Origin: Marsupella aquatica
Lineage: Eukaryota > Plantae > Marchantiophyta
Length of the DNA: 64,000 nt
Assembly: GCA_973895155.1 (NCBI GenBank)
Contig: OZ316898.1
Coordinates: 498,751-562,750 of the forward strand
Reading direction: 5' to 3'
Numbering within the stretch: the stretch's first letter is position 1; every line of letters starts with the position of its first letter. This document shows, one piece after another, positions 6,391 to 49,615 of this stretch. Made by a program: the position numbers and the translations under genes. The notes below the pieces were generated by a model. It was not told where the DNA came from and searched no databases. It saw nothing but the letters and a program-made list of their open reading frames with translations.

Positions 6391-6429
6391 GGTTGTTTGA
6401 GTATGGTCTTCTATCCGTCTTTCCTTTGC

Positions 6430-9580: not shown

Positions 9581-9720
9581 GAGGCTTTGAAAATAGTTGC
9601 ACTCTTACGATTGCAAAAACGCTGAAAGCATATACAATATTTGGTTATTGAGGCTTTGAAAATAGTTGCACTCTTACGATTGCAAAAACGCTAAAAGCAT
9701 ATACAATATTTGGTTATTGA
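9581..9720. repeat. 69-bp tandem duplication
   Basis: gaggctttgaaaatagttgcactcttacg... occurs at 9581 and 9650, with 1 mismatch seen. Confidence 0.88.
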
Positions 9721-15620: not shown

Positions 15621-16645
15621 TGTGACGCTGCCGGTACGGCGGTTAATGAGTGATTCAGTCTAATTGCGCTCGGCACGCGCGTTAGGTGGGTCTTAGGCCG
15701 CTATTATTAGCATAACGACAGTATTTAGGTAATCATTAGGGGTAGGACATCATTAGGTAATAAGGGGGACTTCAGGTTCGGGCTGGCGGCGGGTCGCTAT
15801 TCGCACACCCGGGTTACGAGCGTGGAAGGGCCCCTCCCTCGGGTCCGTATAACGAACTTAAGGAAGCGGCCACTGACGCACGCTGACTCGGACCGGCGGA
15901 GTGGCCGGTACACCACAAGCATGAGCGGTTCAGCCTATGGGCGTCGAGGAGACGTCGGGGATCGACAAGCCCTCAAAGTATAAAAGGGGAGCCAACCCTT
16001 TGTAGTGCACCAGTCCATCAGTCCGCGCGCCAGCTTCGACCCCAGCTCTCTCGTTCTCTCTAGGTCGCCACTACTATCTCCTCTGAATGTCGCACACGAT
16101 CCTCTCCATCTCGGTCATTCGATTCTGGATGCAGTTCCTATCTACCGGAAGACGTATTACATTGGCGGGAAGGCGTATTTCGCTAGCCACATCGAAATCA
16201 TTCTTGGGTGGTACGCCCGGTTTGATCGACGAACCCTTCCCCGCATCAACGTTACAAAGCTGGTCCCAGCTAGGTGGGTTTTTCCGGCATTGGAGAGATG
16301 GCCCCAACCCGAGGCCCGAAGTCCAGTGGACACGCCAACTTCACCCACCCCACCTCCACAAATAGCTGTAACCGTAACCGAGGAGGCGCCGGAGGGGTCG
16401 GTCGTCGCAACCGTTGATGCGACCCAACTAGCCGGGCTAAGTACAGAAGTTGGTACGGCAGAGGTCTTACCCGAACCCGGGTCTCCCAAGGACCCGCCGG
16501 TGGCAATTCCGGAGAACCGGACATCGCTGCAGGAGGACACTCCAGCCCCTTCCCACGTTATGTCCCCCAGGCTGGACGTCACTGCCCCGGCCCCTGCGCG
16601 TGTTGACGTCTGCCCGTGCCCAAATCCGGACAGGCACAACTTGGA
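15621..16645 (+). repeat. 5' LTR, internally deleted
   Basis: 15621-16151 matches 21640-22170 (offset 6019), and 16147-16645 matches 23559-24057 (offset 7412). About 2-3% substitutions by eye. After 16645 the sequence runs directly into gag. Confidence 0.92.
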
Positions 16646-19600
16646 AGAAACGAGTGAAGAAGGAGGGGAAGATTAAACCCCGGGCGCGAAGAACGATACC
16701 AGATCCAAAGGCTGCCGAAGCAGACAAGCTGAACGAAATCACGGATCGACTCAAAGCACTGTCAGTACATCTTGCGGAAAAGCCGGTGGAGAAGAAGAAG
16801 CCATCTGAGATTCGAGCCCATGCGTGGTGTTCAAAGTGCTTCCAATCCGGCCATGTGGTGCAGGAATGCCCAAGGTGGAAGAACCGAGTTCACCAAGTAG
16901 AGCTGGATGATGTTGACAACCCGGGCCCCGAATCGGAGTCCACGGAGTATTTCTCTGAGGACCCTCCTGATTCTGTGTACCAGATTTCAACGGTAGGTCC
17001 GCGTAATTTAGCGGGTAGAACCGCGTACCCCTACCCAAGTAATGGCCGGAGTTTCCAGGTTATCAGTAACCCGAGCATCCCTCCTAAGCCAGGGATTTGG
17101 CGGTCCCCGGTTTGTTACAACTGTGAAAAGCCAGGACACTTTGCGAGGGAATGCACCGAACCAAGACATCAGGGAGATGGCCGGGGCACCCCACTATGTC
17201 AAGTTTGCAAAACGGAGGCTCATTCCACGGCCAACTGTCCGTTGGTAATCGCTGCTCGAACGAGTGCGGCTAGACCGGCCCAGGCTGGACCAGTCACGAG
17301 CGATGCAGTCGTCCAAATGATTGCTATAGAATGGCAAGATGACAACACCGAGTGGGTGAATCTGGTGGACGTGGCGGAACACCCTAATCCATTGGATGAG
17401 GCTGAGTGCTACCGAGTGTCGACAAGGGCCGAACGGAAGGAAGAAAAGACGGAGGAGAAACGAAGGAAAAAGCAAGATACTACTCTGGTGCAGCCAGCAA
17501 TAAATATACCCCCGGAAAAGGACGATGACTACCGATGGGACGACCCGAAGCTGTTCTTCCCCCGCATCGAAGAATTGGTAAAGAAACAGCTGGAGGCTTA
17601 CGAAGCTCGGGAATACCAGAAGGCAATCGATAAGGACATCAAAGAAGCCGAGACAGCCCGGCGACAGGAGCAAGAAAAGCAAGATAGACAAGAGGAAGCC
17701 AAGCAGCAGCCAACGAAAGAAACAAAGGAGGACTATGATATTAAGGAGGACGTGAAGAGTTGCCCGGTTACAGCGACGGTGGGGCAATTGCTGCAGAACA
17801 ACCCACAGTACAAACGACAACTAAGGGAGTTGCTCATGGGTCGTCGAAGGAGGAGACTACCCCGAGTTGGGAGTGCGGACTGCAACATGATATGCGAGGA
17901 CCTTGGAGCGCCGGACATCTCGATCGAAATTAATAACTGTACCATCAAGATGGTTCTTGTAGACGGAGGAGCGGGAGTCAACATCATGACTGAAGAAATG
18001 TCAGTCAAGTTAGGATACCTCACGTATCAACCCACGGCCCGAGCTATCAGATTAGCAAACGGGGCAAGGGTCCTCCCATTAGGCACGCTCACACGAGTGC
18101 TCACTCTGGTGGGAGGGGTAGAGTTCTATCTCAACTTCTTAGTCATGAGGCCGGTTCGTCCCTCCTCTTACCCGGTTCTTCTGGGCAGGCCGTGGTTGTA
18201 CGGTGGCCGCGTAGTCACGGATTGGGGAAAGAAGGAGCTACGGTTCGGGGAACCCACCGTACGGGTATCCTGGGCAATGGACGATTATCAGGGAGAAACC
18301 CCACAAGGACCCGAGGAATATGATTCGGAGACCTCGGAGGAAGAGAAACTCAATATGATCGAACTCATCTCGTCCCTATCCGAGGAAGATGTCTTCGGAG
18401 TTGAAGCAACCCGAGAAACACATCTCCTAAATTACTCGAGGGCTGCCATTGAGTCCACCCCAAGCACATCTACTGTCAGGGATGCGGAAACGCACGAACA
18501 ACTCGTCGAGACGGAGGACACGGCTCCAGCTAAGCAGGGAGCCGAGGCTACTCCTTCCATTTCAGAGCCTCGTAACCATGAACCAGCCCAACAACCGCCT
18601 GAGGCCGAAAACTCAAGACCGAGACATAAAAAGCGAGTCTCATGGGATCCGTCCATTCCGCAATTGGAGGAAGTAAACCCCATCCCGAGACCAATCCCGG
18701 TCCCACCCATGTACGGAGGAGTTCGGTTAGCTGAGCTTGACGCGAGCCTGGACCCGAGTCTGCGAAACCAGGTTGAAGTCATCAGGAAGGAGCACTACCG
18801 GAAGTACACTATTGGGATGGACAAATCTTTTAACCTGGGCCACGCTCTGACGGGGAAGGCTGAAAAATCCATCCAAGCTTTGCTCAAGGAATATGAAGAT
18901 GTGTTTGCATGGAGTCATCATGATTTAACAGGCGTCTCCCCCGAGTTGGGAGAACACACGATCGATCTGAACCTAGGAGCCCATGCGGTACGACAGCGAC
19001 AACGTCGCATGAATCCAAGGTACTCCATCTTAGTGAAGGAGGAAATTGATCGTCTCCTCGCCGCCGATATCATTTACCCGGTAATGGCCAGCGACTGGGT
19101 CTCTCCCATTGTCATTGTACCAAAGAAGGGAGGTACGAATGGAAAACCTAAGATTCGTATCTGTTAGGACTACCGTAAGCTGAATGACGCAACCCGAAAA
19201 GACCATTACCCATTACCATTCACGGATATGGTTCTAGATATGGTGGCCCGAAATGAAATCTATACATTTCTTGACGGGTATTCAGGTTATAACCAAATCT
19301 GGATTCGTCTCGCGGATCAGCTCAAAACAACTTTCACTACGGAGTGGGGGACGTTCGCATTTCGGAGGATGCCTTTTGGTCTGTGTAACGCCCCGGCTAT
19401 GTTTCAGCGCCTTATGATGAATATCTTCCACGATTTCCTACGGGAATTTTTGGAGATATTTATCGATGACTTTGCCATCTTCGGAACCGTTGCCATGCAC
19501 CCCGAACACCTACGATGAACGTTGCAACGATGCCGAGATGTTAACCTCAAACTACATCCCGCCAAATGCTTCTTTGGGGTAGAGGAGGGGGTGTTACTCG

Positions 19601-21672
19601 GGCATCGTGTGTCCAAAAGGGGCATTGAGGTGGACCAAGAGAAAGTTGCGGCCTGGATGGCGGTGGTGTTCTCCGTGGATCAAAAAGCAGTACGATCCTT
19701 CTTGGGCTGCGTAGGGTATTACCGCCGGTTCATTAAAGACTTTGCTAAAATTGCGTTGCCCTTAACTGAGATGATGAAGAAGGACGCAGTGGTCGAGGAG
19801 ACCCCCCGAAGACGGTTTGCTTTTGAGGAACTCCGTAAACGGCTCACCACCGCGCCTATCATGGTCACCCCAGACTGGAATAAGGAGTTCCACGTGTATG
19901 TCGATGTGTCGGGGTTCTGTATCGGATCCGTACTTAGTCAGCTAGATGAGGATGGACGTGATCACCCCATCTATTTCGCTAGCCGTCAACTATTTGCAAC
20001 CAAAAAGAATTATTCCCCCACTGATCGAGAAGCTTTGGGAATAATCTACTCGTGTAAAAAATTCTGACACTATCTGCTAGGCTACAAGGTCATTTTCCAC
20101 ACGGATCATGATAGCCTGAAGTACATGGTCAATAAAGCGGATGTGACAGGACGGATAGCCCGGTGGGTGCTACTTCTCCAGGAATTTAATTACGAAGTAA
20201 GGGTTCGCCCAGGAAGGGTACACCTCAATGCTGATTTCTTTTCACGACTGGACGGCATACCAGTCGATCAGCCAATTGATGATATTTTTCCGGATGAGGA
20301 GTTGTTCCACGTGGGGGAAGGGACACCAACGTGGTACGGCTCAATAATCACCTTCCTTTTAATGGGCCGCATCCCTGACGGCATCAATCAGGAGGCCGCC
20401 ACTATGTTTTTACGGAAAGCTGGGCCTTACGTCATGATATAGGGTCACCTACATAAGGAAGGTATTAACGGAAAGTTACGACACTGCTTAGAGTATAAGG
20501 AGACACTTATCGTGATACGGGCCCTGCATGAAGAAGAAGCTGGAGGCCATTTCGCGGCAGTTACGACAGCCCGAAAGATTCTGGACTCGGGGTATTGGTG
20601 GCCTACGTTGCATCGGGATGTACAGCGCTTCATTAAGGGTTGTGACTTGTGTCAGCGAGCGGGGGCCCCGAGGCGGGCTCATCATCACCCGCTCACATCT
20701 GTGCTTCCATTGGCACCATTCGAAAAATGGGGAATTGATTATATCGGGCCGTTCACTCCTGTTACCCGAAGGCGAAGGTGCAGATACATCCTATTAGCTA
20801 TTGATTACTCCACCAAATGGGTCGAAGCGCGGGCTACGGTAAAGGACGACGCCACAACCAGTGCCAGATTCTTATACGAACAGATTTTCACCCGATTCGG
20901 ACCGCCCTTGGAATTGGTAAGCGACCGTGGAACCCACTTCCTCAATGACACCGTAGCCCAGCTTACGGAGCGTTACCTAGTCAAGCACCGCAAAACTACC
21001 CCGTATCATCCTAAAGCCAACGGGATGGCGGAGAGAGCAAATGGTATCATTGGGAAGATCCTCAACAAAACTATAGCTGCGCACAAAACGAATTGGGATG
21101 ATAAGTTGTACGCAGCGGTGTACTCGTATAATCTAGCTTACAAAACTACTACGAGTCACAGCCCGTACTTTCTGGTATTCGGCCAACATTCGTTGGTGCC
21201 CGTCAAATTTGAAGTGCACACTCCACGGGTCAGCATTCGGGATCGCTTACCTGAATCTGAAAGTCTGTCAGACCGAGCTTATCAGATTGAAGCCTTGGAA
21301 TAAGCACGGCTACTGGCAGCTCGACACACCATGAAGAAACAGGCAACTTCGAAGAAGCAGCACGACAAAGGACTACGGAGGGTCGACGTCGTGGCAGGCG
21401 ATCTAGTCCTTCTGTACGATAGTAGGTACATGCAGTTTCCAGGGAAGCTGCATACCCGGTGGTTGGGGCCCTTCCTTGTCAATCAGATCTACCGAAACGG
21501 ATCTTTGGAGCTTGCGACGTATGCCGGCGATTTACTCCCCACGCGAATCAGCTACGATCGTGTAAAAAAGTACCACCATCAAGATGACGACACCGATAGC
21601 GATGTTCACGAGGACACTTCACAATTAAGCAGGGAGCTATGTGACGCTGCCGGTACGGCGGTTAATGAGTGA
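16646..21672 (+). pseudogene. gag(C-terminal part)-pol of the gypsy element; single frame with 5 in-frame stops
   Basis: Three CX2CX4HX4C knuckles, protease LVDGGAGVNIM, RT DYRKLN..KDHYPLP..FLDGYSGYNQI..FIDD, RNase H, integrase HHCC plus D-D-E (GIDYIGP, SDRGTHF, NGMAERAN), and a GPF/Y motif. Stops at 19165, 19516, 20065, 20440 and 21301 are all in one frame. Confidence 0.95.
21623..21639 (+). promoter_or_regulatory. Polypurine tract
   Basis: aattaagcagggagcta lies immediately before the TG start of the 3' LTR. Confidence 0.6.
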
Positions 21673-21997
21673 TTCAGTCTAACTGCACTCGGCATGCACG
21701 TTAGGTGGGTCTTAGGCCGCTATTATTAGCATAATGACAGTATTTAGGTAATCATTAGGGGTAGGACATCATTAGGTAATAAGGGGGACTTCAGGTTCGG
21801 GCTGGCGGCGGGTCGCTATTCGCACACCCGGGTTACGAGCGTGGAAGGGCCCCTCCCTCGGGTCCGTATAACGAACTTAAGGAAGCGGCCACTGACGCAC
21901 GCTGACTCGGACCGGCGGAGTGGCCGGTACACCACAATCGTGAGCGGTTCAGCCTATGGGCGTCGAGGAGACGTCGGGGATTGACAAGCCCTCAAAG

Positions 21998-22004
21998 TAT
22001 AAAA
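21998..22004 (+). promoter_or_regulatory. TATA box of the LTR (copy at 15979-15985)
   Basis: TATAAAA followed by a pyrimidine-rich patch, about 100 bp upstream of ATG 22106. Confidence 0.6.
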
Positions 22005-22105
22005 GGGGAGCCAACCCTTTGTAGTGCACCAGTCCATCAGTCTGCGCGCCAGCTTCGACCCCAGCTCTCTCGTTCTCTCTAGGTCGCCACTACTATCTCC
22101 TCTGA

Positions 22106-24757
22106 ATGTCGCACACGATCCTCTCCAGCTTGGCCATTCGATTCTGGACGCAGTTCCTATCTACCGGAAGGCACTTGGCCGATTCATTGAAACACGCCAA
22201 CCCGCACCGATACAAAATCGAACGCGAATACGAGAGAGCCATCCGCCTAGCAGGACGACACCACTACATCCTTAACTTTGACTACCCGTCTCAGAGCGAG
22301 CTTTACCGACCAGCAGAGGTATCTGGGTACTTCTTCAACGGAGACAAATATATCGGGTTCTAGGAAGCATTGCTTCGGCTTCCGGACGAGGTCTTCAACA
22401 TCCCGGGTACAATCGACCTGTAGCGACATCACTTCGACCACATCCCTGCCCAGGTTCGGGCTGTCATTAACGGCGAGTCCAGTACCAACCGTTCGACAAG
22501 GGCGTCCGCACTCGCTTCGGAGAACTTCTACCAGCACCTGCAGAGCTTCATGGGAACTCGGCCATCGACCAACATGACCAACTCAGCCGTGCCCGTACCC
22601 ATACCCGTGCCCATGCAACCTCAGGCTCAACCTCAGGCTCAGCTTCAGCTTTAGCTTCAGCCTCAGCCGCAGCCTAGCCAAACCCCACCACCTATCACCC
22701 AGCTAGCACAGGTACGCTCCGTCATCAACGCTGTGGATCTTAGCGATGACGACGAGGCTACCCCACCCTTGACCAGGCGGCCCAGAGGAACAAGCGCTCG
22801 GGGGGCCGACACTATATCGTCCCCACCCCCTGCTCTGACCCTAGGAGCGGCCCCAACAGACAACATGGTGACCGTGGCCGCCCCGGGCCCGTTACCAATG
22901 GTAGTGGCACTCCTCAGGCCCGATCGGGAGGATGGGGAAGTATCACCTTCCCCGAGTCAGTCACGGGGAAAGAAGAGGAAGGAATCCGCCACTGCATCCG
23001 GGTTACCGTTGGCCACGGTAGCCGTAGCCAAGGTGACAATGCACCGCATGGGGGAAAACGTTCACAGCAACATCCTCCATCCCAAGCATGCGGTGTACCT
23101 GAAGACTCAGGGATTTGAGCACCTCGCCTCTCTCCCCTGGAATACTTGCAGGTACTACGGGGAGGACATGACAGAATTCATCAAGAATTATGACGACGTA
23201 CGTCAATAGACTCAACTACGGGGAAGGAATATGTCCCTCACAGAAGAACGGCTCAAGATGATCTTCGGGTTACCCGAAGGTGACCATCGAGTCGAATCAC
23301 GGGCTCCCGGGGGCAAGGGGGCCAAGTACCAATCTTCAAGTTTTCCCTCAGAGGGAGCAGTAGACAACGGGTTCGTGATGAGGACCTGCCTCATGCCCGA
23401 GATAGCTGAGCGGCTGGAGTTCCAAAGGTACGCTCTCCACATGATGGAACCCCAGGGGGAGATCTCCGCCGCCCAGGTTATCCAGGTCGAGAACTATCGA
23501 CCTAGGAAATGGGCATCGTACTTCGCTAAGAAATTCCATGAAGAGATGGAGCGGCAAAGGAAGACGTTGTACATTGGCGGGAAGACGTATTTCGCTAGCC
23601 ACATCGAAATCATTCTTGAGTGGTACGCCCGGTTTGATCGACGAACCCTTCCCCGCATCAACGTTACAAAGCTGGTCCCAGCTAGGTGGGTTTTTCCGGC
23701 ATTGGAGAGACGGCCCCAACCCGAGGCCCGAAGTCCAGTGGACACGCCAGCTTCACCCACCCCACCTCCACAAATAGCTGTAACCGTAACCGAGGAGGCG
23801 CCAGAGGGGTCGGTCGTCGCAACCGTTGATGCGACCCAACTAGCCGGGCTAAGTACAGAAGTTGGTACGGCAGAGGTCTTACCCAAACCCGGGTCTCCCA
23901 AGGACCCGCCGGTGGCAATTCCGGAGAACCGAACATCGCTGCAGGAGGACACTCCAGCCCCTTCCCACGTTATGTCCCCCGGGCTGGACGTCACTGCCCC
24001 GGCCCCTGCGCGTGTTGACGTCTGCCCATGCCCAAATCCGGACAGGCACAACTTGGACCTCTTTGTACAGGGTACGTTCCTGAACGGGCTTCTGGGAGAT
24101 TTCTCTCATCAAATTGCCCGGGATATCGGGGAGTTCATGGCCCGGAAAGTAGCCTATTTCTTCAATCAGGAGTTGGTTGCCGCCGTAAAGGCAGGTCGGG
24201 CCCAGTCGGAGGCCCTTCAGAGGATAGAGCGGTACCGGGTGGAGTCCGTGTACCTAAAGAACGAAGTGGCGGCTCAAGAGGCTGAGCTTCTGTAACTACG
24301 ACCCAAGGTTGCAGCCGTCGATGAGTTGTTAGCAAAGGCGTACACTCTTACCGCCCTAGCCGAACAGGCCAAAGCTGGGAACGAGGCCGAGATTACACGA
24401 CTCCGGAACCAGATTGACAGTTTGAAGACACAAGCTATCACCTGGCAGAAAGACCTGGAGGAGGCCGAGGAGCGAGCCCAGCGGGACACGGCGGAGATAG
24501 CCACGCTGTAGGCCGAGATAGCGCGGCTCCAAACCGAGGCCGAGAAGCAGGATCAGCTGGCGGCTAAACTGACGAGCGACGCCCAGCAGCTGGAGGAGGC
24601 ATGTCAGGAGGCAGCAGAGGAGACGGACGCGGCGAGGCAAGAGAACGAATCTCTGTTGGACCAGGTCCAGCTCCTCAAAGCGGACAATGAGAGGCTTCGA
24701 AGGCAGCGGGATGGCCGTTCCCATTCGGGCGGCTCTGGCAAGCGTGCCAGGCATTAG
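22106..24757 (+). pseudogene. LTR-encoded accessory protein (~883 aa): N-terminal domain, Q/P linker, basic NLS-like RGKKRK, conserved globular domain, C-terminal coiled coil
   Basis: ORF-track pieces 22106, 22733, 23231 and 24326 share one frame. There are 6 internal stops (22361, 22421, 22652, 23207, 24293, 24509) and no frameshift. Homologous to the ORF at 36367-39743. Confidence 0.85.
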
Positions 24758-26669
24758 CGGCGGAGTAGGAATAGATTAGGATTAGGATTGGCTTAGTCAG
24801 GCTCTTGGGATAGGCATCTGCCTTAGGTATAGCAGCGCTGCCCTGCTGTCCAGCCTGCGTAGATTAGGATCTTCTAATAAGACACAGCCATTTTCCGGCC
24901 TAACTGTCAGCTTAGTTAGGACCTTAGTCAGCGAATCTTCGGCGAGAGGACACCCCGTCCCTCGGCTCTTAGTATTTAGTGCACCCCTCGGTAGAGGCAG
25001 GGGGGTTTTTAGTTTCAGAGTCGGACATCCGCGGGATATGCGGGGAGTCCCGACCTCTGGGAATGAAAGAGTACCAAGGGGAGGGGGTAGGACTAAGCTC
25101 ACCGGGCGAGTGCGGAGCCGGGCTCCGTTGTAGTGTGCACCCTCGGCCTTGAACCTGTTCATTCCAGGGCTGTCGGGTCAACTAAGTGTACGCATATGTC
25201 CCCTTTGTAGTAAAATCCTTTCCCATCATTTTCCTTCGTGTAAATCGAGATTGTATGCATGTGTGCGCATATGTGTGTGGGTTTCTCGTATATGGGTGGC
25301 AGCGCCAGGCCAAACGCACTACCCGAGACGTGCACAGGGTGCAGCCTGTGGGTAAGTGGTTGCGAGCACGGGTTGGGGACCTGTATCATCGAATCCGGAT
25401 CGAAGGCGGACAGCACGAAGGCTTAGAAGCCCTTAAGCCGGGGTCGATCCTGCTATCGACTAAGGTACGTTCCGGCGGCGGAACACAAACCATACCTAGG
25501 AGGTGTCTGTATTTAGCAGTAGGCGCACTTAGCGCTAGTTTACGAGAATAAGGTGCATTACGTGCTTCCCTTCCTGCCCGAACCCTCAGATTTACGAGGG
25601 ATGTGCCCATCTAAGCTGAAGTCTGAGTTAAGGCCGAAGCCTACGACGTGACAGAGTGTCTTCATCATTAGGTTGATGGATTTCTTCGATAGGCTGCTTG
25701 TGATATTCATGGACGGATGGGTCTCATCAGACCCCCACTATCCATCTTGACCACACTTTTGACAATGCATTTCAATGGCCTTACAACGTGCTCAAGCTTG
25801 AGAAATTTATTGTGGACACGTCAATGTGGGTGCTGTTGTGCCTCAGAGGACACTTGCCCCCTAGAGTACATTCCTATCCCACTTGCGGATTTAATTAGTA
25901 CACTAGATATGGACTATTAGCTCTTGCCACATGTACTTCCTACTAGTGAAGTCTTAGCTACTCTTCCCCTTCTTTCCTTCTCGTTTTCCAGGGTTGCCCT
26001 TGCTTTCATTTTTTCTTGTTTGGTGTTTGTACTCTTTGGACCTGTTTTTCTTTCCTTCCTTCTTTCCTTTCTTTTGTTTTGTTCCAAATTAATAAATTTT
26101 GGTGGAAGTTTAAGTCTTCAAAAAAAGAAAAGAGTTTTGTTTTTCCCATCATTTGCTAAATTTCGCCCCCCGGGGCCCGGGTATCCCGCTGGGTTTCGCA
26201 CCGGGCGAAAAGCTGACGACAGCCAGGGCCGACTTTTTCTTCCTGCACTCGTATTCCGATACAGACTACGAAGTAATTTTTTACTCTGAGAAAAGAATCC
26301 TCCCTGCAAAGCTGATCGATGGCGACTACGGCACGATTCGAATCGCCTACGATTCGCGCTTTGTGACGACGGTGCGAGAACAGCAATGCTACTGTACTCT
26401 AGAGGCCCAGGAGAGACCCAGCTACACACGCATCAGGAGCTCGATTCCGGGAAGTGTGGAGCCTTGCCGTGAAGATTGTGAAATGGGCTTGCGGTGATCC
26501 TTGAAGTAGAGTGATCAGGAATTGCGATCTCCATGCTCTGTCCGAGAGGGAGAGAGTGAGTGGATTGGGCTCAGGAGCTATTCGTGGTTGAATCGTTGGT
26601 CTTGGGATACGATAGTGGAGGGAGGAAATCGGCGATTCAGACGGTGATCAGAAAGCAGAGCAATCCATC

Positions 26670-30848: not shown

Positions 30849-33242
30849 AAGATCACGAGCGGCTATCATCTACGAGTACACGCCATATCCTCCACATATT
30901 TTAGAAACGGCACACATGAGGTCAACAACCGAGGCTCTTCTCTAATGTATAGCACTGTCCCCGTGTACTGTTTTTTATTCGTTTTCCCCACTAGCTTGTA
31001 ATCCAACCGCCTCTTTTTAGTCTACACCTGCACAAGTGCAGATCGACGAGGAACTCAGCAGGCAGCACCATTATCTGACCTGGCATCCTAGGTGGAGTAT
31101 GTTTTTATCCTAGCCACTTTGGGAATGCTCGAAGTAGGGTCTGGCGTTTCAGATCCTTTTCAACCAGTGTGTATCACATGACAGGCATTCAACCCTCGTG
31201 AATGCTCGATATGTTTGGGCATATAAACACGCAATGTTATCATTTATTAATTGTAAATTAAATTATATCTGTTGTAAAGTACCTTTGAGTGGTGAAAATA
31301 AGTTGCACAGTCAAGTCCAACTCTACCTTCTGATTCTGCAGAGAATTTTAATACTACTCCAGAATTTTAATAAACTCCTTAAACCCTTGATCTTGAGCCC
31401 AAATTCAAATATAGAAATGAGAATCTACTGATACCCACAGTTGAGAACACTTTTTCCTTGATCTGTTTGATATCTTTTGACGCTGCTATATGGCACCTCC
31501 AATCTCCTAGGTTCAATTTTTGTTACTTTTTAAATTCTAAGTTGGGCCTACGAGGCCTGCCTTCCTTGTCTGTCTTTCAATTTCAAAATTAATTGATCCC
31601 CCCCCCCACCTTTTCGAATATTAAGCCTGGATGGACAGGGGTTCATTTTGCCCATCCCATGGACTCAGTAACATGTGGTCTCAATTTACACCCGGCTGCT
31701 TTTGGAAGCACTCTTCATTCTTGAGAAGGACACGGCTTTTGGAAGGACTCTTCATTCTTGAGATGGATGCCTGGAGTAGTTTTTTCAAGCATCCCAATCA
31801 ACTGTAACATGTTGGGTTTTAGCAGACTTTTGCACTTATTTGGACAATTTTGGATCTCTTTTATAGGTCTAAATTTTCCAACAGGGTCTCTGTATTATGG
31901 TTGCTCCAACTTTAAACCATCTCCCCAAAATGGTAACAAGAAGCTTTTAATACTATCGTATCTAGATAATGAGAAAAATAAATTCTTTAAGGTACTTAAA
32001 AGTGTGAAGATTACTCCCAAAAAATTGAAATAGTTTGTCTTGTAGTGTTTCCCGCTTGAAATACTTGTCTCAAGCCTTTTGTTTCTGGTAGTCACTGTGA
32101 ATCATGTTTGGGTAACATTTATAGTTATCCATGGCAAATAGTTGTTTCCAATGACTCCCAACAAACCCTTTGCTTTTATTGTGAAGGCTTTTAAAGATCC
32201 AAACATAATTGTGACGGTTTGACAGAAGACTTTAAACTAAGAATGATCAATTTTTGTGACCTAATTACATTGCACATGTGATGCAAATTTGTCTCCACCA
32301 ATTTCAACATCGTAAGGGCTCAACAGCAAAGTACTGCAGGTGGTTGTCCCACAACAAAGACACTACTTAAACAAAGGTAGACTAGCTTGCAGTGGTGTCC
32401 AACTGGGCATGCTGTGGCTTATGTGACCCACAATCCCAGCAAACCCACTTAGAGACATATCAGCTAAGGATCCAAGTCTATCAGTGGAGTAGGCCCAAAG
32501 TATCCAAGAACTTCATCACTATTCTACCGCAGAGATGAATGCTCTTCCGGCAGCCTTCGCTGGATTATTTGGTATTATGTAGATGAAGGATATGCGAGTT
32601 ACCATGAACGTGGTTAAATTCCACACAGCAAGGCCCATCCCGTGAATTTCTCTTGTCCGGTACCTACATAGAAACACGTGGGATGATGTGCGGAAGCATT
32701 TGAGAGTTATCTTGATAAAATACCATATTACAAAGCCCGTTCTAAGGGATGACCTTATTGAATAATGTACATTAAGCGTCCTGAACGTGATATATCAAAA
32801 GAACTGCAAGGAACAATCCCTGGGTCAAGCCCAGAGACGAGATTGCTCTTCCTTTCTAGAAGGAACATGATGAAGGCAGCCACCCTATTTGCAAACAATC
32901 TCAAGGAGCTCCTGTCCTGGTAGCTCCTATCCTGCTTATGGCTTCCGTGTAGAGAATATTCCAGTAGGCCGTTCCTCCATCCAATATCTCCTAGATGTAG
33001 TCACGCAACAATTACCATATAAAACCATCTTTCGATATCCAAAGAGCAAAGCCACCAGTGTTGTCGGCAGAAAATCGAACAGTAAACTCCTCAATGGCTG
33101 CATGCCCCAATAAAAAACAATTCAGAGCAATTGTGCAACCAGTGTAGTATAGTAGTGGACCCCTCGGCGAGCAAATGATCCCAAAAGAAAAACTCCAAGA
33201 GAAGAATCCTTCCCCGACAGATAATGGACTAACCTTAAGCTC

Positions 33243-35011
33243 TTAGTCAATGGGCACCTCTACCTCCATTTTCAAGCCAGCTTTACTTAGGACCTACCAA
33301 AGGAACAATACCACTGTGTCAGTGACCCAAACCACATAACTCCAACCCCTACAACAAGCTTGATTGACCAAAAATTGGAGCCAAAGGAACTTAACAGAAT
33401 TTCCTGAAAAGTTGATGAGCTGGCATTTCGCCTTAAAAAAGGTGACTTTACAATACCTCTCTAAACTCGTCTGGGGCCAAAGAGCTATCTTTTGAAAAGC
33501 CTGATTCTTCCAGTGCTTGAGTTACCACAGCCTGCACAGGACGGAGAGCAGCGACCATAAAGACAGAGTATTGTTTCAATCTAACCAACTTCGCCCTGCT
33601 CAAAAACTATTCAAGGGATACTGGGACGTGTGCATTCTTTTCCTAAAAAGTATGACCACAAGGCACTGTAAGGTATGGTGCGGTACCTGGCGCTGCTCAT
33701 CAGTGAGAAATGAACCCGAAAGATCTCGTAAGACTTGCATGATATCGTCGCGTGAAATTTTTCCGTTGCTTCGAATGTCATAGACTTTAAAAACGACTGC
33801 AGTGGAAGAAATATGAGATTTATGTCATTCAAAAAACTAGCAACTTGTGGCTTCGTTGCTTACGCATGTAATCTAGCTTACTAGAAGTACAAGTTTATCT
33901 ACCCATTCCAGAACAACGCATTTCTGAATCATCCTCCATCACAGTCCAGATCTCAAAGTCGGTGTGGGTCATTGTTAAGACGTGGAGATTTAGAGGTAAG
34001 ATATTTACAATCTAATTTGTGCTGGATCGGTGCTCTTGGGCTGAAAGCTGACAGGACTGCAACAAACTCCTTGAAGTTCAAGCCTTCCAGTAGTCCCAAC
34101 AACCTCTGTATCAGAAAGACAGAGGAACCAAAATAAGTTGACAAGCTGTCTATGATAGCTCCTCTAATACTGTAAGTTATAATTCATTATTTCAAAACGG
34201 ATGGGCATGACGACCTTCGGTGAGAGGGCATCCGAAGGCACTTTCAATCCCAATATCATGTGCTTCTCCTACTATCCAGCTCTCTAAAGATCTAATTTGA
34301 AAGAAAGCAAAGTCTGAACCGACCTGTGAGAGCGGGTTGAGAGCGAATTCTGGGACAGACATAAACTCGTCTCCAGAAATGTAGCCTTTTCCATTGCGAT
34401 CTAAAGCGCAGAATCTTTGATACAGAGACACTATTTCTCTTTGAGAAACTGCAAACCAGGATCCACATGAGCGATTTCTCGTCCAAAATTACAATTTCTG
34501 TTTCACTAATTTAGCCGTGTACTCACAATCGGACAACAACTCCAGATATGAGCGTCAGTCGATAGGCCATTTGAATCGTACAAATTCCATAACCTGATAG
34601 GAGACAAAAGCACATCCTAGCGGTCTCACGGAAAACTTGAAGTTTCTTTATGAACCTGCCTTTGAAAGTATCAATGTAGGGGCCAATGCGTACATCTCCT
34701 CCAGGAAATCACTGTCTAGTATAGTGGCCAAGGCGTGCATCTCCTCGAAGCAATCACTGTCTAATGGACCCTAACAAAATTTAAGCAAAAGAACAATGCC
34801 ACTTTACAAAAACCCAAGCTCCTCTGATTTTAGCATGTCGAACTTGAGATCCTCACAGTTGCGCCTTTGTCAGTGAAAGGTTCTGGAAGCCAATGACAAA
34901 CGCACTCATCTCGGTAAGAAAGAGGGACAGAGAGACCTCACATAGATGAGAACAGTGATTTTGCACCTCCTCGATGTCGTACTGGGTTAGCATGGATGTG
35001 TTGTTCCCCAT
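33243..35011 (-). CDS. Calcineurin B/CHP-like EF-hand calcium-binding protein (6 exons, 175 aa)
   Basis: Exons 35011-34942, 34448-34324, 34105-34009, 33796-33687, 33531-33457 and 33293-33243 total 528 nt. Protein reads MGNNTSMLTQYDIEEVQ..LYQRFCALDRNGKGYISGDEF..FKVYD..MEVEVPID*, with an MGxxxS myristoylation motif. Confidence 0.93.
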
Positions 35012-36016
35012 CCTTCCCGGCTTTCAATTTCCGCAAGTGCTTCAAATTCCCGAGCTATCCAACTTGAGTAGACACGGACACCGAGAAACCCACCTGAAAT
35101 GCAAAAATGGGGCAACCGCACCGGACAGTCCTCGAACCTCTCAGAGAGCACTCGCTATGGCCTTCGATCGAGATCGACACCTGAATTGCGGCCGTCCGCC
35201 GTGCAGCAACGAATCCGAGAGCAGCACCAACAATCGTAGCTGATCCGCGGCCATCTCCAACGAAACGATAGCAGAGTCGCAACCCCTGCCCTGCCCTGCC
35301 CTGCCCTGCTTTGCTCTTCTTGGCCGAATGCAAAGTCTCGTCGCTCGGCTTGCTAGTGTACACTGAACATCAGTCCCAGCAAGTATATTCCGCGTCTTCT
35401 TCTCGTGCACGTAGGTTTTCTTCGTTACTTAATTGTTATATATATATCAAATTGCCAAAACTACAGGAACGCCATACGCTACACGGTCCCAAAGGCAAAA
35501 GAACCCAATAAAGGGGGGAAGGGACCCCAAGAAAACCAAAGAGGCCCCACAAGTTAAGGAGTATCCCACAAAATCCAAAAGACCAAACGACAACCTAAAG
35601 AACCCTACTGGGCGGTAAACTAAAAAAGCGAGCTCTAGAGTAAACTGCCTTGAAGGGTCACAGAGGGGAATTTGTCTAGAGGCCCTAAAATGGATTGCCT
35701 TGGCCCTGCGTAGGATAGTGAAAGTCTGGGCCCCCTGAAGGGTCACTGACACCCTCTGTCGAAAGAAGGCCACGAGGACAGAAACAAAGGGAAAAGGCCT
35801 CTGCTCGATACAAAACACAACACAAGCCTGAAGGAAGTGGTCAAAATGAGGGTGGAGAGCGCCAAAGACCTCAAGGGTAAAAGGGTAGAAAAGATCCCCC
35901 GGGTAACGAACCGCATAAGCCTCCTCCTTGAGCCGAGCCGCCTTGGCGGCAGCATGTCCAGGAACATAGGCTGCCTCAACAACATTACTCCCCCCTAGTA
36001 GGATCTACAACCACCA

Positions 36017-39000
36017 TGTGATGCCGTGCCAGGATCACGAAGTACTTAGTTAAGCCTAAAATAATGGCTAAATAAAGATTAGGTAGATATAATTAGGGAG
36101 TTATAAGGATCGAAGCCGATTGCAATATGTTCGGGGGAAATTGTGATGGGATCTGATCCAATGGTCGCGATTAAGTGGGATTAGGGTTATGACCTAATCA
36201 GGGCTTGATCAGGTAAGCCATCAGGAGGCGGCTTCGTAGGGAGGGGACCGACACTCTGTACACTAGTGCAATTGCTTGATCGATCAACCTAGGGAGGTGG
36301 AATCAGCTGCCGATCGATCGGAGGAGGTGGTTTGGGAAATTGCGCAAGTTCTTGGCATTCGGTGGAATGAACACGGTGAATCAGGCGGGGAAGTTTTGGG
36401 GTTGTTTGCTTGAAGAAACAAGGCAGCTGATACCTACGTATGAAGACGTTGAGCCGGAGCGCGCAGCCAGAGAATGAGCAAAGCTTGCGCGATTGTGGGG
36501 AATTCACCAATCGGCATTCGTAGATACAGAGGAGGTGTTGGAAAAGTTCTCGTGGACACCCACCAGTGCGGAGCTTGACGAATTGCTAATTCGGGAGAAT
36601 AAGGTCATGGGGATCAGGGAGGCAATCAAGAACGTCGGGCAACCACTTTGGGAATTGAAGGGTCACACTGCAAAGTGGACGAAGGTAGCTATTCTTGGGG
36701 AGTATTAAGGCGCTGAAGAGATGAAGCGCAAGGGAGTTTCGGCATCTGCAACTCCAGCAAAGTGAACTAGGTCGGAGAGACCAATCAAGATGGAATCCGG
36801 GCCAATTAGAGATCGGGCTGTAGAAGATAAAAACATGACAGGGTGGGCGAACAGGTTACCTGCCGATTTACAATTATAGTTTGCAAGAGATGAGGATGAG
36901 GTCTTCAGTGCCGTTCAGGATAACAAATATGCAGGATATATGAATGACATTGGGTTGGAGGGCTTTGTCAGGTTGTCCTGGAGAATGGTAGACATACCGG
37001 ATGAGGATCTGTTGGACTTCGTGGGATGCTGGGAGGCTTCTTCCAACACAACGATGCTGTATGAAAAGGTGTTTGAATTAACACCTGCGCTTATCGAAGC
37101 CGTGTTCGCTTTACCAACAGGAAGGAAGACAAAGGTGGAGCAGAGGAAGACGTTGCCGGACGACCAGTTCAGGTCATTTCCAGGGCCTTCCACTAAGAAT
37201 GGGTTTTTCAGGAATCAATGTACCAACCCACATATAGGGCAGCTGATTGATTTCCTGAGAGTCACATTGCATTGTACCTTGCCGAGAGCAGAAATCGGCA
37301 AAGCCCAGGTATTTTTGGTAGAGAATATTGATGCAAGCCGAGACTACAATGGCTATCTCTTAATGCAGTTGAAGAAGGCATTAAACGAAGAGAAGCAGAG
37401 CATTGGGGAGGGAGCGGTATCCAGACTAGGGTACCATCTGCAATTACTTTGCCGATATGCAAGAAGCCAGTCTTTTGCACCAGTGTTGCCTATACAGGAG
37501 CGGATGCGGATCACTGCACCACTTGAGGAGGTGGAGGAGGACGAGGAGCCTCTAAACATACGATGCCACGGGAGGAGGTCGGCAACACAGGCAACACGAG
37601 AACGGGAGCATTCCCCTATCAAGGAGCCAGAGGTAGTAACACATGATGTAGTGAGAAATCCGTTACGCCGGCCTACTCGTAATAATCCATATGCAGGCAT
37701 CCAGTTGGTCGAGAGGAAGATGACTGCCGAAGAGAGAAAGAAATATGATGAGCGAATGGATTCGGAGACAGATGAGGAGGTAAGCCGAGGCCAGGAGAGG
37801 CCGGTAGTAAAAGCTTCTAACAGAGCCCAAGTGAACGGACCCGTGGAGGAAGGTCAACCAGCAGCAGCCCAACAATTTTCAGAGGAAGAGATCGGGGAGG
37901 CCGGCATGTTAGGTAGTCGGGTTAATGTGGATGATTACGACGACGACTATGTCGATCACGGGGAGAGGCCGGTACCAGGAGTTAGAACGATGGGAAGGTT
38001 TTGTAGAAGACTTCCCGCGGTCTTCTATGGCAAACCGGAGGACCAGAAAATGCCAGAATCTCCTCCACCAGATGTGACGCCATTGGAATTCAACAAGATG
38101 AAGGAAGCTGAAGCCGGGCTACATGAGAAGATTAAGGAGTTGGGGGCCCGGAATGCAGAACACGAATGCCAGCTACCAGGAGGAGAGCTCGGAGGAGAGT
38201 GGCCGGAAGGAATAAGACGGCTTAGTGAGAGGCAAGCCGAACCTCTCACTGACTTCGACCAATTACGGGCAGAAGCTTGGGAGAGACGACCTCGATGGCA
38301 GATGCCAGTATCACCTGGGAGGTCAAACTATGCAAGAAATCGGGCTAAGGAGTATGGAGACATGTGTGGACTCTTAGCCTTAGAAATATTCGGCAACGAG
38401 TTGGAATCCAGGCTATTTCTTAGAAAAGAAATGGCTGATCAGACAAGACTGGAGGAGGCAATGACATTGGAGCATTTGAAGAAGAAGGAAGTAATCGCTC
38501 GACTTCACTCCATGGAGGCCGTAGTTGCTAAGACGAAGTCTGTCAACCAACTCAGCAGGATCTCTTGGCTAGGCAGTAGGAATTGGAAGTGGCAAACAAC
38601 CAATTGGAAAACTACCAATTGGATAACCAGCAGATCAAGGAAAAGTTGACGAAGATAGAGCTGGAGTTAGCCAATTCAAAAGTAGAAGTACAGGGTTTAA
38701 ATCGCCAAGTTGAGAGGCTCAAAAAGACGACTAAGGAGCAGGCCACCCAGAGCGAAAAGGCCTTGGCAGAAGCCCAAAGGAAGTATGATAAGTTACTTGA
38801 CCGGTTGGAGGCCATGCGTGAGAAGCATGATGACGCCATGTGCACGACGGCCAATGATCACCTAAACCGGGTTCAACAGATACGCAAGGAGCTTCAGGAG
38901 GAGCTAACCAGGACAAAGCAGGCATGGACGAACGAGGTCACAAAACTGGAAGGTATCAACGACTCCTTGAAAGCAACCGTAGATAAGCAAGAGTTGGAGA

Positions 39001-40651
39001 TCGTGCAGATCTTAAATGAGGAGTTGAAGACGGCCAGGGCCGAGATACTATGGCTTAACGATGAAGTTGAAGACGTATCTCAGGAATTGGAGGAGGCCAA
39101 GGATAAGATGGTCGGGTTGCAGAGGCGTGCCGACAATCAAACGCAGAAATTGAAGAAGTATGTCGAAGCGGGATATGGGTCACCAACTGAAAGGCTTCCC
39201 GACAGTAGTATGGTAGGCGGAAATATAGTGAAGCCGAAGCCGAAGCCAAGCTCCCTGTTGTCAAGCGTGACTGGGGGCAAAGCCATGCAGTTGGTGGCAG
39301 ACTTGGCAAAGACGTTCATGGGGCCAGGCGATAATAAAGTTAAGGCCCTTAAAGCCACTCCGGAGGAAGTCGAGAGCATGGCCGCTCACATTTGTGGTAC
39401 TGTGGCCCTGAAGGCAACGGTGGTAGAGGTAAGTACTGCAGATCAACTTGGAGCTACGGTAACAGGTTTAGATGATGGTACTGCTTCTATGGACGCACAG
39501 AATGTGAAACCGTGGGTTATCGAGATCGAGCGCATCGGGGAAAAGGCTTGGATTGAGGAAGTTAAGGCAAAGGCTCTCCAAGCCGTTTCCCAGGAGGATG
39601 CCAATGCAGATGCCGATGCCGAGACCGAGGCCAGGGCCGGCAAACCAGAAGCCGAAGTCAAGGAAGCCGAAGGGGTCAGGCCGGGGCCGATGGCAGGAGA
39701 AGGTGCAGAGTCGGAAGATTCGGACTTACCCCCGGTCATCTAACAATTAAGGAGGGCCAGTCATTGGTTGGAAGGAGGACATGGCGGCAGGAGAAGGGCT
39801 TGGGCCAGAAGGGCGCGGCCGTTGTAGGATGGGACAGGGCAAGTAGCGCCCTGTCGGCTTAGGTAGTAGTAGATGCTCGGTTCACACATGGTTCCGGGCT
39901 ATTCCAGTTTTTAGGTGATAGTTTTTTGGTAGGATTATCGCGGTGGAAGGCCGTGTGTGGTGGTTAGGATTTCCGTTTGTTTTTTCCTGAATGCGCTGCA
40001 AGGATAAAAACCTGGGCAGTGTGGCTTCGGGGGCTTTTTCTTAGTCAAGGCTTTAGTGTTAATCTGTATTGTTGTGAGCACAGGAAGCTCTCGGCTAAAT
40101 CTAGACCGTAGGGTATCAGTAAACCACCAGTTCCCTTGGATTTCTGAGCAATTGTTTGAATTGAGTTGGCCTCGTTGCATAGTTCGCAGATTCTTGCCAT
40201 CCAAGAAATTGAGTGTTATGATATCTGTTGCTTGATCGATTTAAGTCAGATAGGGTGAACTGTTGAGCAAAATACAATCGCATTGTCTTGATTGGAAACT
40301 GCCCAATCAAACTCTGAGAGAAAAGTGAGGATTGAGAGTGTTAGTCGGTGAAGTGTGGGTTGAGTCAGTCTGAAAAAGACCTTCAGCCGGCTTAAGAAAT
40401 TAAGCCGTAGAGGTACATTCCGGGGGCGGAATACAAATATACCTGAAGAAGTTAAAGAGGAATTAGGTGTCTCAGTTGTGCACAATTCACAAGCCCAGTG
40501 AAAGAATTGGTCCGGTAAGTGTGGATCGAAGGAGAGTATCGCGTTTCCAAGCCGAATAGCTGCCATAAGGCAAGAGGACGGACATAAACAAGTGGTTTAT
40601 GATCGGTTGAGGGTAGTTCTTGGGGTTAGAGGTCTTGGGAAACGTGCCACA
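36017..40651 (+). mobile_element. 4635-bp solo LTR-like insertion carrying a long ORF
   Basis: Starts TGTGATG and ends GCCACA, flanked by cacca (36012-36016) and tacca (40652-40656). Excision restores the host RLE frame LGDVVVVDPT. No gag/pol and no terminal direct repeats seen. Confidence 0.82.
36367..39743 (+). pseudogene. LTR-encoded accessory protein homologue (~1120 aa) with long coiled coil
   Basis: ATG 36367 is in frame with track ORFs 36493 and 36940. Stops at 36475, 36706, 36763 and 36877; a 1-nt frameshift near 38540; a further stop at 38577; then ORF 38583-39743. Aligns by eye to the 22106-24757 protein in two domains. Confidence 0.82.
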
Positions 40652-41379
40652 TACCACATCACCGAGAGAACGAACACCTGCCCAAGAAAAAACCAGGTCA
40701 GCCCGACGCATGTCAGGAACACCATTCCTAGGGGGAAGGACATGTTGTTGCTCCATAGCAACATGGTACCCAGAGTCCCGGGCAATGGCAACAACCACAT
40801 CCCAAATGTCATTGTCCTCTCGATCCCATGGTTGCACTGAAAAATATGAACATCGGATGGGTCCAGAGATGCCCACATACACAAGAGGGTCGGCCGAGGA
40901 GGCAAGGGTGAGGGTGGCCTAGACGGAGGTGTATAGATGTGGCGAAGAGGAAGGAGCTCATGCAGAAGGGGGCCCAAAGAGGACTTGCAGAAAGCCAGGA
41001 TCCTGAATTAAAACCCGAGCAAGATAAGAGGCGGGCCCAAACTGAGTCTGAACGTGCATCAGAGAGCATGCTAGAAAGTTAAGGGAGTGATGGTGCATGC
41101 GGTTGAAAATCACCTGCTGAACACAATCCATATTGTCAAAGACTACCTCCACAAAAGCAGAAACAATAGCATGCACAACTTTGGGTAGTAATGACCGAGT
41201 GTGGTAGAGCTAAACCTGGATAGGAAGACTGCCATCCTCCACCCCCATGACATGGTCAAAAAGGATGGGCTGAAGATCCATAATGAACCGGGAGGCCAGA
41301 GCAGGGCCCACATGTGCCCAACAACCAAGGATGACACAGGGGGCCATGGCCACAGTAGAGAAAACACCCATGCCCCCAC

Positions 41380-41706
41380 TGTTAGGTATTTACTCAAGGT
41401 CTACGGTTACGACATGTACCATAGTTAGGCTGACCATAGTTGGAGATGTGGTTAGGTTAACTAGGATGCACACTATATGCCAAACGATGTTTGCTTGGAT
41501 AAGTGGAACTTAAGGCTCATTGTTACGGAGCCACATGAGAGATGAGGAGAGCTTACACTGTGAAGACTTGGTTTAGCCGATGGGCTTAGAGTTCAGTAAA
41601 GCTCTCTTGTGGCCTCGAGGAGGTGAACCACGTACCTCTTGTGTCGACTACTTGATCGTTGGATGTGTCATGTGCTTACCGTTGTGATTGTCGTCTATGC
41701 TCAACA
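41380..41706 (+). mobile_element. 327-bp solo LTR
   Basis: TGTT...AACA ends with a perfect TSD CCCAC (41375-41379, 41707-41711). Removing it restores the host frame. Confidence 0.88.
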
Positions 41707-48524: not shown

Positions 48525-49615
48525 CATCGACCCATGTGCAGAAACGATGACTGAATAAAAAATGCTCAAATTAAGTTAAGTTCTCACAACAATTTCCATT
48601 TAGGGCACGACAAACAAGTTTCACTCTCTTTCCTCCTGATATCGAGCTTGAACAACAGCAACATTTGGACCTACTTGGCTCAATTGATTTTATTACAACA
48701 AAGTGAGAATGCCGTGGATATTCAGATTCCCTTGTACCTGAACTAGAAAGGGTTTCTCCCGTACCCTAACTTCCTCAACATAGACAGAAACTCTTGTACT
48801 CTGTTCTTTACTTCTGTTCGAAATTGTTTCCCCAGTGTCTTCCAGGATACAAGAGTACCCTCACATTAGAGTCCCAATTAATTCTGTACAAATTGACGGA
48901 TGTCAGAAAATATCTACCAGGAAACCTGTGGAGTGTTTGCTCCCAACAATCACGGGAATCAATGAGAATAATCACTCGCGTCCATGGGGTCTCACTTCTG
49001 AAACAATTTCTAAACAACCTAGACTCAACAGAGAAATCCATTATCGGCGTGTGTCGTGATGGTTCGGATTTTAAGTAGAAAGTTTGACCACATCAACAAA
49101 TCTAACTTTCGTCCAGTACACTTGTATTCATGAAGGATGGACTTGAGTGGTCATCCCGGTGAGCGTCACATTGAATTCTAACGCATCTAAACGATTTCGG
49201 AGCCTACGAAAAGATTGACTACAGATAGCGAGAAGGCACCATTTAAGAACAATGCTGTGCTAACGGAAAGCTATGAATCCACTTTATGGACACATAACAT
49301 GGATGTATCAATAGACCGGCACAGAGGTAAAGCACATACCAATACACCGGCAACAAGCAATTGCATTTGCTAAGTAGTATCGCACGCTAAAACCATTTCT
49401 CTAGTATAACTTTCAGACACAGCGTGTATTGGCTCAACAGCCAACTGGATATCATTGTATCCAGCAAGGCTTAGTGGCAGTATTCCTCCATGCAAAAGGT
49501 CGCCGATGAGCTTCTCCTTCCGTGCATTCAACTTGTGCAAAACTTTGGTAGATTACTGGTGACCTGCTAACTGTAACGACTGAATTAATGTATTAACAGA
49601 ATGACATACCAAACC

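Follow-up and report, generated by a model that had tools for sequence, protein, structure and literature searches.

ORFs that lie in the retroviral U3 or overlap it are known from MMTV (sag) and HIV (nef), and solo LTRs derived from recombination are normally seen as dead ends. VANC21, a DUF1985 protein of the Arabidopsis VANDAL Mutator-like transposons (PDB 9lnj/9lnk; PMC5735166, PMC13547354), is reported to bind DNA motifs and to cause demethylation of its own transposon family; in these reports VANC appears as an accessory protein of DNA transposons that has variable regions and a coiled coil and is dicot-specific. The literature also reports structural homology between VANC and MAIN/plant mobile domain (PMD) proteins and puts the host MAIN/MAIL proteins and the retrotransposon PMD-A (no assigned function) in a VANC/PMD fold group. 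PMD-A, Transposase_32 and Transposase_28 are found in extra ORFs of the non-chromovirus-like Ty3/gypsy elements Ogre, Athila and Retand, up- or downstream of gag-pol and, in PMC6317226, PMC5418596, PMC11728184, and PMC7264820, drawn between the LTRs; PMDs are described there from angiosperms. PMC7264820 leaves open what the accessory ORFs of plant retrotransposons do, and PMC5418596 whether PMD proteins arose in retrotransposons or in hosts. Giant LTRs of 3 to 5 kb are carried by Retrosat2/RIRE3 and Ogre (PMC3485330, PMC6317226) and are described as non-coding, with ORF0 upstream of gag-pol. The literature searched contains no plant accessory gene inside an LTR; most subscription papers, Repbase, and the REXdb supplements lay beyond reach and may bear on novelty.

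The unit at 36017..40651 (plus strand, 4,635 bp) of the 64-kb window, i.e., of the whole stretch of DNA analyzed, is a solo LTR of a Ty3/gypsy-type family. As stated in a preliminary description of this DNA, it has TG..CA ends (TGTG at 36017, CACA at 40651), contains no gag or pol, and is flanked by a 5-bp target site duplication (TSD), CACCA at 36012..36016 and TACCA at 40652..40656, with 4 of 5 positions identical and a single transition. Public contigs from other copies of the host repeat contain the empty site, where 35992 is joined to 40657 without the unit; because one of them has a single CACCA, the TSD was originally 5 bp and one copy has mutated. The host is a 3' fragment of a LINE-like repeat (35700..40900, outer limits approximate, minus strand), recognized by its frame continuity and its repetition in the runs. 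It has no Pfam match, and in a motif it resembles an RLE-type LINE. Excision of the unit with one TSD copy does restore the host frame on the minus strand (…RRADLVFSW…LGD|VVVVDPT), which shifts again about 10 codons past the restored junction. In public runs, contig depth is high over the whole 4.6-kb unit and steps at both of its ends; the best DNA run used for the contigs may be the window's own sample. No PBS or PPT adjoins this copy, and 36017..40651 has no terminal direct or inverted repeats of its own.

The solo LTR contains an intronless accessory gene of about 1,125 codons (36367..39743, plus strand), identified by coding bias and homology. The preliminary description presented it as one ORF of about 1,120 codons in a stand-alone cassette. 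The offsets given for its ATG (350 bp here, 466 bp in the other LTR) are exact, but the frame is interrupted by five in-frame stops (36475, 36706, 36763, 36877, and 38577) and a frameshift near 38540-38580, and this copy is a decayed pseudogene rather than a working cassette. The coding bias is nevertheless clear, with 4 stops in 723 codons versus 16 to 42 in the other five frames and, in the second part, 1 stop in 395 codons versus 8 to 26 in the other frames. Among the best 40 of 709 differences, 27 fall in the ORF and two of these hit stops, where contig depth is nearly all non-stop; these two stops look copy-specific. There is no clear TATAAA upstream of the ATG. At the ORF stop lies a PPT-like word (39743..39756, plus strand), possibly a relic or a second polypurine tract; the pattern was defined after this site had been seen, and two matches to it occur in 5 of 100 shuffles. 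Near the LTR 3' end there are two short inverted repeats (40388..40444, plus strand) with modest folding z-scores (-1.0 to -2.3).

A related gene is found in element 1, a Ty3/gypsy retrotransposon at 15621..25653 (plus strand) with a perfect TSD, GAGTG, and the domain order PR-RT-RH-INT (Pfam). It has no Pfam match to a chromodomain or an additional RNase H at E ≤ 1, which is an absence only, and from its motifs presumably resembles Athila. Two deletions have cut its 5' LTR, leaving 15621-16151 and 16147-16645, and the PBS and the 5' part of gag are lost. The 3' LTR (21640..25653, plus strand, 4,014 bp) contains the homologous accessory gene (22106..24757, plus strand, 883 codons with 6 internal stops), preceded by a TATA-like word at 21998, 108 bp upstream of the ATG. 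The 5' LTR remnant contains a second copy of part of this gene, and the gene therefore lies inside the repeat.

Comparison of the two proteins bears out their collinearity in part. The domain order is the same and two domains align significantly: the conserved N-terminal domain (36367..36666, plus strand, ~100 aa), whose alignment score with the element 1 N terminus is reached by 0 of 500 shuffles, and the central domain, which shows 27% identity over 203 aa (E = 2e-18). A non-significant protein alignment, which the preliminary description had named as refuting its reading, is not what the comparison gives. The remaining regions do not align significantly: shuffles reach the score in 406 of 500 cases for the linker, in 101 of 500 for the pre-coil helix compared directly with element 1, and in 56 of 500 for the coiled coil. 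A profile search found no third copy of the central domain in the window. At the DNA level, the earlier statement that there is no similarity to 21640-25653 does not hold, as 40411-40444 and 25463-25497 are 86% identical across 35 nt (E = 4e-4). The alignment of the last ~300 nt of the two LTRs also outscores each of 200 shuffles. The 35-nt motif has two matches in the window versus none in 100 shuffles, with a pattern built from these same two sites, and none in viral contigs; a single metagenome match was rejected as bacterial-looking and due to chance. The stretch after the stop is about 900 bp long in both families (908 and 896 bp).

Other copies provide the junctions that this one lacks. 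In public run X2, a PBS-like loose end follows 40652, with four T and then TGGCGCTAGAAGG (7 contigs, agreement 0.63); this junction comes from that run only and is one row among the best 24 of 1,559. The word satisfies the REXdb rule (TGG 0 to 5 bp after the LTR) and has no match in the literature searched; the 64-kb window has no tRNA gene. In one of two contigs from run X5, the left end of a relative of the solo LTR is preceded by a PPT/integrase-tail tract, identical to that of element 1 (21609..21639, plus strand) at 26 of 31 nt by hand count, in a contig of depth 9 that has another organism label and is ~93% alike over 57 nt. The assignment of the solo-LTR family to Ty3/gypsy follows from this shared PPT. 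Neither a full-length copy of the family nor an intact ORF was seen, and the window has no full-length copy. The ends, the empty site, the PBS-like and PPT junctions, and the protein homology support the earlier proposal that another, divergent family has the gene-in-LTR layout and is reduced here to a solo LTR. Its "independent" status is not upheld. Since the PPT tract, the 3' motif, the post-stop length, and two protein domains are common to both families, a single origin kept through divergence is indicated, not repeated invention.

The central domain (36880..37500, plus strand, ~200 aa) is predicted to have a VANC (DUF1985)/PMD-like fold. Its model (pLDDT 82.6, pTM 0.81) superimposes on residues 299-533 of the VANC21 chain with Z = 7.6 to 7.7 over 194 of 207 residues (rmsd 4.1), at an identity of 7 to 9% and a Z under the tool's caution line of 8. 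VANC21 is the sole chain with Z ≥ 5 among 48,161, the next one having Z = 2.2. Foldseek gives it a TM of 0.48 (E = 2.3), versus ≤0.17 for the other rows among the matches listed. A sequence search of PDB returned 0 matches, and the viral fold library nothing at E ≤ 0.001 (best, A0A890CAY5; E = 0.022, TM 0.34). The central domain has no Pfam match, and the DUF1985/DUF287 profiles match neither the window proteins nor any of the 21 alignment members. Transposase_32 (PF20167) is weakly matched by two of the 21 members (E = 0.006; best, 16.9 bits against a curated cut-off of 45), and no window protein matches it or PMD (PF10536); nothing reaches the curated cut-offs. Assignment of the central domain to the VANC/PMD fold group is thus a prediction from the model. 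A shared fold by itself shows no function.

Among 1.84 billion representatives there are 14 homologues at E ≤ 0.001; of 10 clusters examined, 3 carry a name, in each case Calypogeia fissa. Word-based searches for homologues returned nothing, which is weak evidence, one of them having covered unsuitable lengths (1,379 to 3,935 aa). A search of the alignment for a conserved stretch found none, and Rfam gave a chance match only. The N-terminal domain of the element 1 protein aligns to homologue P0026 (with a score seen in 0 of 500 shuffles), that of the solo-LTR protein compared directly does not (203 of 500), and the structure model of this domain is unusable (pLDDT 52). A helical segment (38224..38541, plus strand) aligns to homologue P0017 (0 of 500 shuffles) and precedes a predicted coiled coil (38559..39173, plus strand), whose heptad signal is reached by 45 of 1,000 shuffles and whose Pfam coiled-coil matches are sub-threshold only. 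Neither LTR protein has a transmembrane helix by 19-residue hydropathy, the highest value being 1.24 in the solo-LTR protein and 1.1 to 1.3 over both; the possibility of an env-like protein was rejected for want of a membrane helix. No clear VANC-type tandem target arrays are found in the LTR, where TRF reports short arrays only, and the top word of its non-coding part, AAGCC (14 versus 3.1), does not exceed the best word that a shuffle yields.

The reading that we favor, as somewhat better than an even bet, is that the unit represents a family with gene-bearing LTRs of 4 to 4.6 kb, whose protein, predicted to have a VANC/PMD-like fold, would likely bind DNA and regulate chromatin so as to help the element to escape silencing. 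Full-length members would have the structure LTR-PBS-gag-pol-PPT-LTR, and LTR-LTR recombination would have left the copy at 36017..40651. The likeliest place of the gene is in U3, behind a promoter of its own, for which the TATA-like word of element 1 might serve as a parallel, and transcription of the genomic RNA may begin in the final ~0.9 kb, close to the shared inverted repeats. Given this U3 placement, each LTR, solo ones included, would be a self-contained transcription unit. The central domain might recognize short motifs within the non-coding LTR DNA of its own family, the coiled coil might multimerize the protein, as reported or predicted for VANC21, and the bound multimer could keep LTR promoters open in cis and in trans. 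A bolder version, which we put forward tentatively, has non-seed-plant retrotransposons carrying a VANC-type, sequence-specific anti-silencing gene in the LTR, such that every LTR, even a solo one, is a promoter-gene-target cassette that unsilences the family in trans.

The same solo LTR and the same fold could instead belong to a protein of replication or integration that tethers the pre-integration complex to chromatin, handles RNA, or scaffolds the particle, like the accessory ORFs of Athila, Ogre, and Retand. PMD, Transposase_28, or SMC-like-coil ORFs are common in non-chromoviruses, and nuclear or regulatory roles have been proposed for them; the protein has an extra N-terminal domain with no VANC counterpart shown, and no target-motif arrays were found in the LTR. 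On the other hand, the one match of solved structure is a DNA-bound, sequence-specific anti-silencing factor, and a position inside the LTR would probably separate the gene's promoter from gag-pol. We consider this role about half as likely as the favored one. Replication or regulation aside, the layout itself might be functionally meaningless, an upstream PPT having taken over and swallowed an ordinary 3' accessory ORF. The word at 39743-39756 would then be the old PPT and the ~900 bp after the stop in both LTRs a normal LTR length, with a single event ancestral to both families. We regard such an accident as improbable, given that the layout was kept even as protein identity fell to 27% and that the PPT-like word is missing after the element 1 stop at ≤1 mismatch; it concerns origin and fits either function. 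Least probable is a non-autonomous element bounded by its own short LTRs or TIRs, which the preliminary description had named as an outcome that would refute its reading, or a captured host gene. The window does lack a full-length copy of the family, but the unit has neither terminal repeats nor introns, its contig depth is high throughout, the homologous gene sits within the proven LTR of element 1, and PBS-like and PPT/integrase-tail junctions border other copies.

A gene-in-LTR family, apparently from outside the flowering plants, ties the questions of accessory-ORF function and PMD origin to the one solved anti-silencing structure and allows a direct test of whether an LTR-encoded protein binds and unsilences its own LTR. 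If the anti-silencing reading is true, an LTR retrotransposon would have such a system, the VANC/PMD fold would be older than flowering plants, and a retrotransposon origin of the fold would be favored. For annotation, LTRs can hide kilobase ORFs that enter databases as "unnamed proteins," and a solo LTR is not necessarily a non-coding remnant.

With MMTV sag and HIV nef, the solo-LTR gene shares its place within the LTR, but those genes belong to animal retroviruses, encode unrelated proteins, and are far shorter. The LTR length is similar to that of Retrosat2/RIRE3 and Ogre, whereas about 73% of the solo LTR is coding. Like the PMD-A-type ORFs, the gene is accessory and belongs to a Ty3/gypsy element, here a probably non-chromovirus-like one. 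Its product is predicted to fall in the same fold group through the PMD-DUF1985 link reported in the literature, and two of the 21 alignment members weakly match Transposase_32; it has no Pfam PMD match. Unlike the ORFs of Ogre, Athila, and Retand, it lies downstream of the PPT and inside the repeat, and is therefore duplicated and survives in solo LTRs. VANC21 is the nearest known counterpart in predicted fold, and VANC is likewise a transposon-encoded accessory protein with variable regions and a coiled coil. The LTR protein differs from it in its 7 to 9% identity, in having no DUF1985 Pfam match, and in the absence of visible tandem target arrays, and any similarity in activity would be hypothetical. 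Finally, the gene sits not in a VANDAL Mutator-like element of a dicot but in a retrotransposon LTR, probably of a non-seed plant.

The unit at 36017-40651 (4.6 kb) begins with TGTG, ends with CACA and is flanked by CACCA and TACCA, bearing out the TG..CA ends and 5-bp TSD of the preliminary description. Contigs from public sequencing runs join the flanks without the unit, in one contig with a single CACCA. At the left end the summed depth of the contigs rises steeply (e.g., from 166 to 18,671 in run X2), and at the right end it drops from 82,858 to 3,250; these steps are a sign of a repeat family and do not give a copy number. Both boundaries are thus firmly placed. The unit lies in a LINE-like fragment that resembles the RLE type; a Pfam search of this fragment returned no match. 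Excision had been said to restore the host frame exactly. The minus-strand frame is indeed continuous over the junction without the unit and one TSD copy, but it shifts again about 10 codons on.

The earlier reading of this unit as a solo LTR holds. Searches for terminal direct or inverted repeats of its own, such as short LTRs or TIRs, found none, and other copies display PBS-like and PPT-type junctions, seen as short stretches with no full-length copy among them. Behind 40652, an X2 loose end (7 contigs, agreement 0.63; among the 24 of 1559 loose ends listed) reads four T and then TGGCGCTAGAAGG, which fits the REXdb PBS rule. In one of two contigs from run X5, the tract right before the TG start matches the PPT and integrase tail of element 1, a Ty3/gypsy retrotransposon, at 26 of 31 nt (hand count). 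This run has a different organism label, and the contig, of depth 9, is ~93% alike over 57 nt. Every difference in this tract is a transition. The unit is a genuine solo LTR whose gene has decayed, and confidence in the gene-in-LTR architecture is high. In X1 and X3 contigs, its right end (40651) is joined to 36417 in the opposite orientation, which suggests that one family member was inserted into another.

The accessory gene runs from an ATG at 36367 to a stop at 39743. The length first proposed, ~1120 codons, is nearly right (about 1125), but the frame is broken by five stops and one frameshift. Coding bias is strong: a stretch of 723 codons has 4 stops versus 16 to 42 in the other frames, and another of 395 codons has 1 versus 8 to 26. 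Two of the 27 in-ORF differences, drawn from the 40 of 709 listed, fall on stops of the window copy, the other three stops not being among those rows; both look copy specific because nearly all contig depth reads otherwise there. The window copy is a pseudogene. A PPT-like word at 39743-39756, found with a pattern built after the word was seen, lies on the stop of the gene and might be a relic or a central PPT.

Element 1 (15621-25653) has the domain order PR-RT-RH-INT and a perfect TSD. A homologous ORF lies within its 3' LTR (21640-25653), and part of this ORF occurs a second time in what is left of the 5' LTR (15621-16645), which demonstrates that in element 1 the repeat includes the gene. 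The 5' LTR has suffered two deletions, each joint showing short microhomology: one took away the 5' half of the gene in the LTR, and the other brought the LTR next to mid-gag. Where both LTRs can still be compared, 24 of 1030 nt are different, including 20 transitions. The pol frame crosses the PPT and stops ~10 codons inside the 3' LTR (21541-21672), leaving no 3' noncoding region after pol.

The window also contains two diverged inverted copies of a ~1.7-kb repeat (7047-8719 and 11223-12705, ~68% identity) and a further inverted pair (41384-41706 and 57422-57754). Exon-like pieces at ~3000-4100, ~27000-30700, ~32000-35100 and ~49500-53700 look, from inspection and from their motifs, like parts of host genes for a PP2A catalytic subunit, a cathepsin X/Z-like protease, a calcineurin-B-like EF-hand protein and a CDK-like kinase. 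The sole piece confirmed by Pfam is a PMT-type methyltransferase (50814-51506).

The two LTRs had been described as lacking DNA similarity, which proves incorrect: both have a 35-nt motif close to their 3' ends (E=4e-4), and the alignment of their last ~300 nt scores higher than all of 200 shuffles. The 5' ends show no significant alignment (11 of 200 shuffles reach the score). The proteins, described as collinear, can be aligned over two regions, the N-terminal domain (0 of 500 shuffles reach the score) and the central domain (E=2e-18); the coil, the linker and the helix preceding the coil do not align significantly. Both genes stop ~900 bp short of the LTR end. The shared 3' DNA, this post-gene length and the aligning domains therefore indicate that the gene-in-LTR layout was inherited once and kept during protein divergence to 27% identity. 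Short inverted repeats are made by the shared motif and by a neighbor of it, and one pair has changed in a compensatory way between the families. Because the z-scores for folding are modest, an RNA hairpin is indistinguishable from a DNA site. A match to the motif in a bacterial-looking metagenome contig (L001:1918-1940) was dismissed as chance. TTAGG-type words cluster, not clearly above chance, in noncoding LTR parts of both families (21700-21780, 24762-24920 and 36078-36190).

Pfam searches with the accessory protein yield just sub-threshold coiled-coil matches, and a search for a membrane helix found none, which argues against an env-like identity; that assignment was rejected. A full HMMER scan finds 14 relatives of the central domain; of the 10 clusters looked up, 3 carry the name of the liverwort Calypogeia fissa, and we infer a non-seed plant as the host of this gene family. 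The AlphaFold2 model of the central domain is good (pLDDT 82.6). Foldseek gives it no significant match, with a TM of 0.48 for VANC21, a VANDAL anti-silencing protein of Arabidopsis, versus 0.17 or less for the other listed rows. In VIA-align, run against 48,161 chains, VANC21 scores Z 7.7 (rmsd 4.1, 194 residues), under the caution line of that program but spanning the whole domain; the next chain has Z 2.2, and a repeat run agrees. This match is consistent with a weak Transposase_32 hit in 2 of 21 alignment members and with the published link between the VANC DUF1985 and MAIN/MAIL plant mobile domains (PMD) (PMC13547354; bioRxiv 2024.09.27.615353). Transposase_32 is also present in an Athila accessory ORF (PMC11728184). 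Judged by the model, the central domain probably has a VANC/PMD-like fold.

Full-length elements would have the order LTR-PBS-gag-pol-PPT-LTR, from which LTR-LTR recombination would have left the solo unit. The accessory gene most plausibly lies in U3 under its own promoter; element 1 has a TATA-like word at 21998, and the solo unit was searched for a clear one with none found. Genomic RNA would start in the last 0.9 kb of the LTR, keeping minus-strand strong-stop DNA short, and each LTR would be a promoter-gene-terminator unit.

VANC21 binds short motifs in the noncoding DNA of its own family and removes methylation (PMC5735166). By analogy, the accessory protein might bind its own LTRs and keep them open, but such an anti-silencing role is tentative, with somewhat less than even chances. 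A search for VANC-like motif arrays found none, which counts against it, as does the membership of the fold group, which also includes host regulators and the retrotransposon PMD-A, whose role is unknown (PMC5418596). The main rival to anti-silencing is that the protein serves replication or integration.

Retroviruses have genes in LTRs, e.g., MMTV sag, and the gene-in-LTR layout as such is not unique. A literature search of incomplete coverage found no case of a plant accessory gene within an LTR. Among non-chromoviruses, LTRs of up to 5 kb are known, as are accessory ORFs that encode PMD-type domains; in the available text of these reports, the ORFs lie up- or downstream of gag-pol and the giant LTRs are treated as noncoding (PMC6317226; PMC7264820; PMC3485330), whereas here the ORF is inside the LTR and the solo LTR carries a gene. 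By sequence and element type, the accessory protein is not a member of the VANC/PMD families, but it is predicted from its model to share their fold and, by analogy, may work like a VANC/PMD protein.
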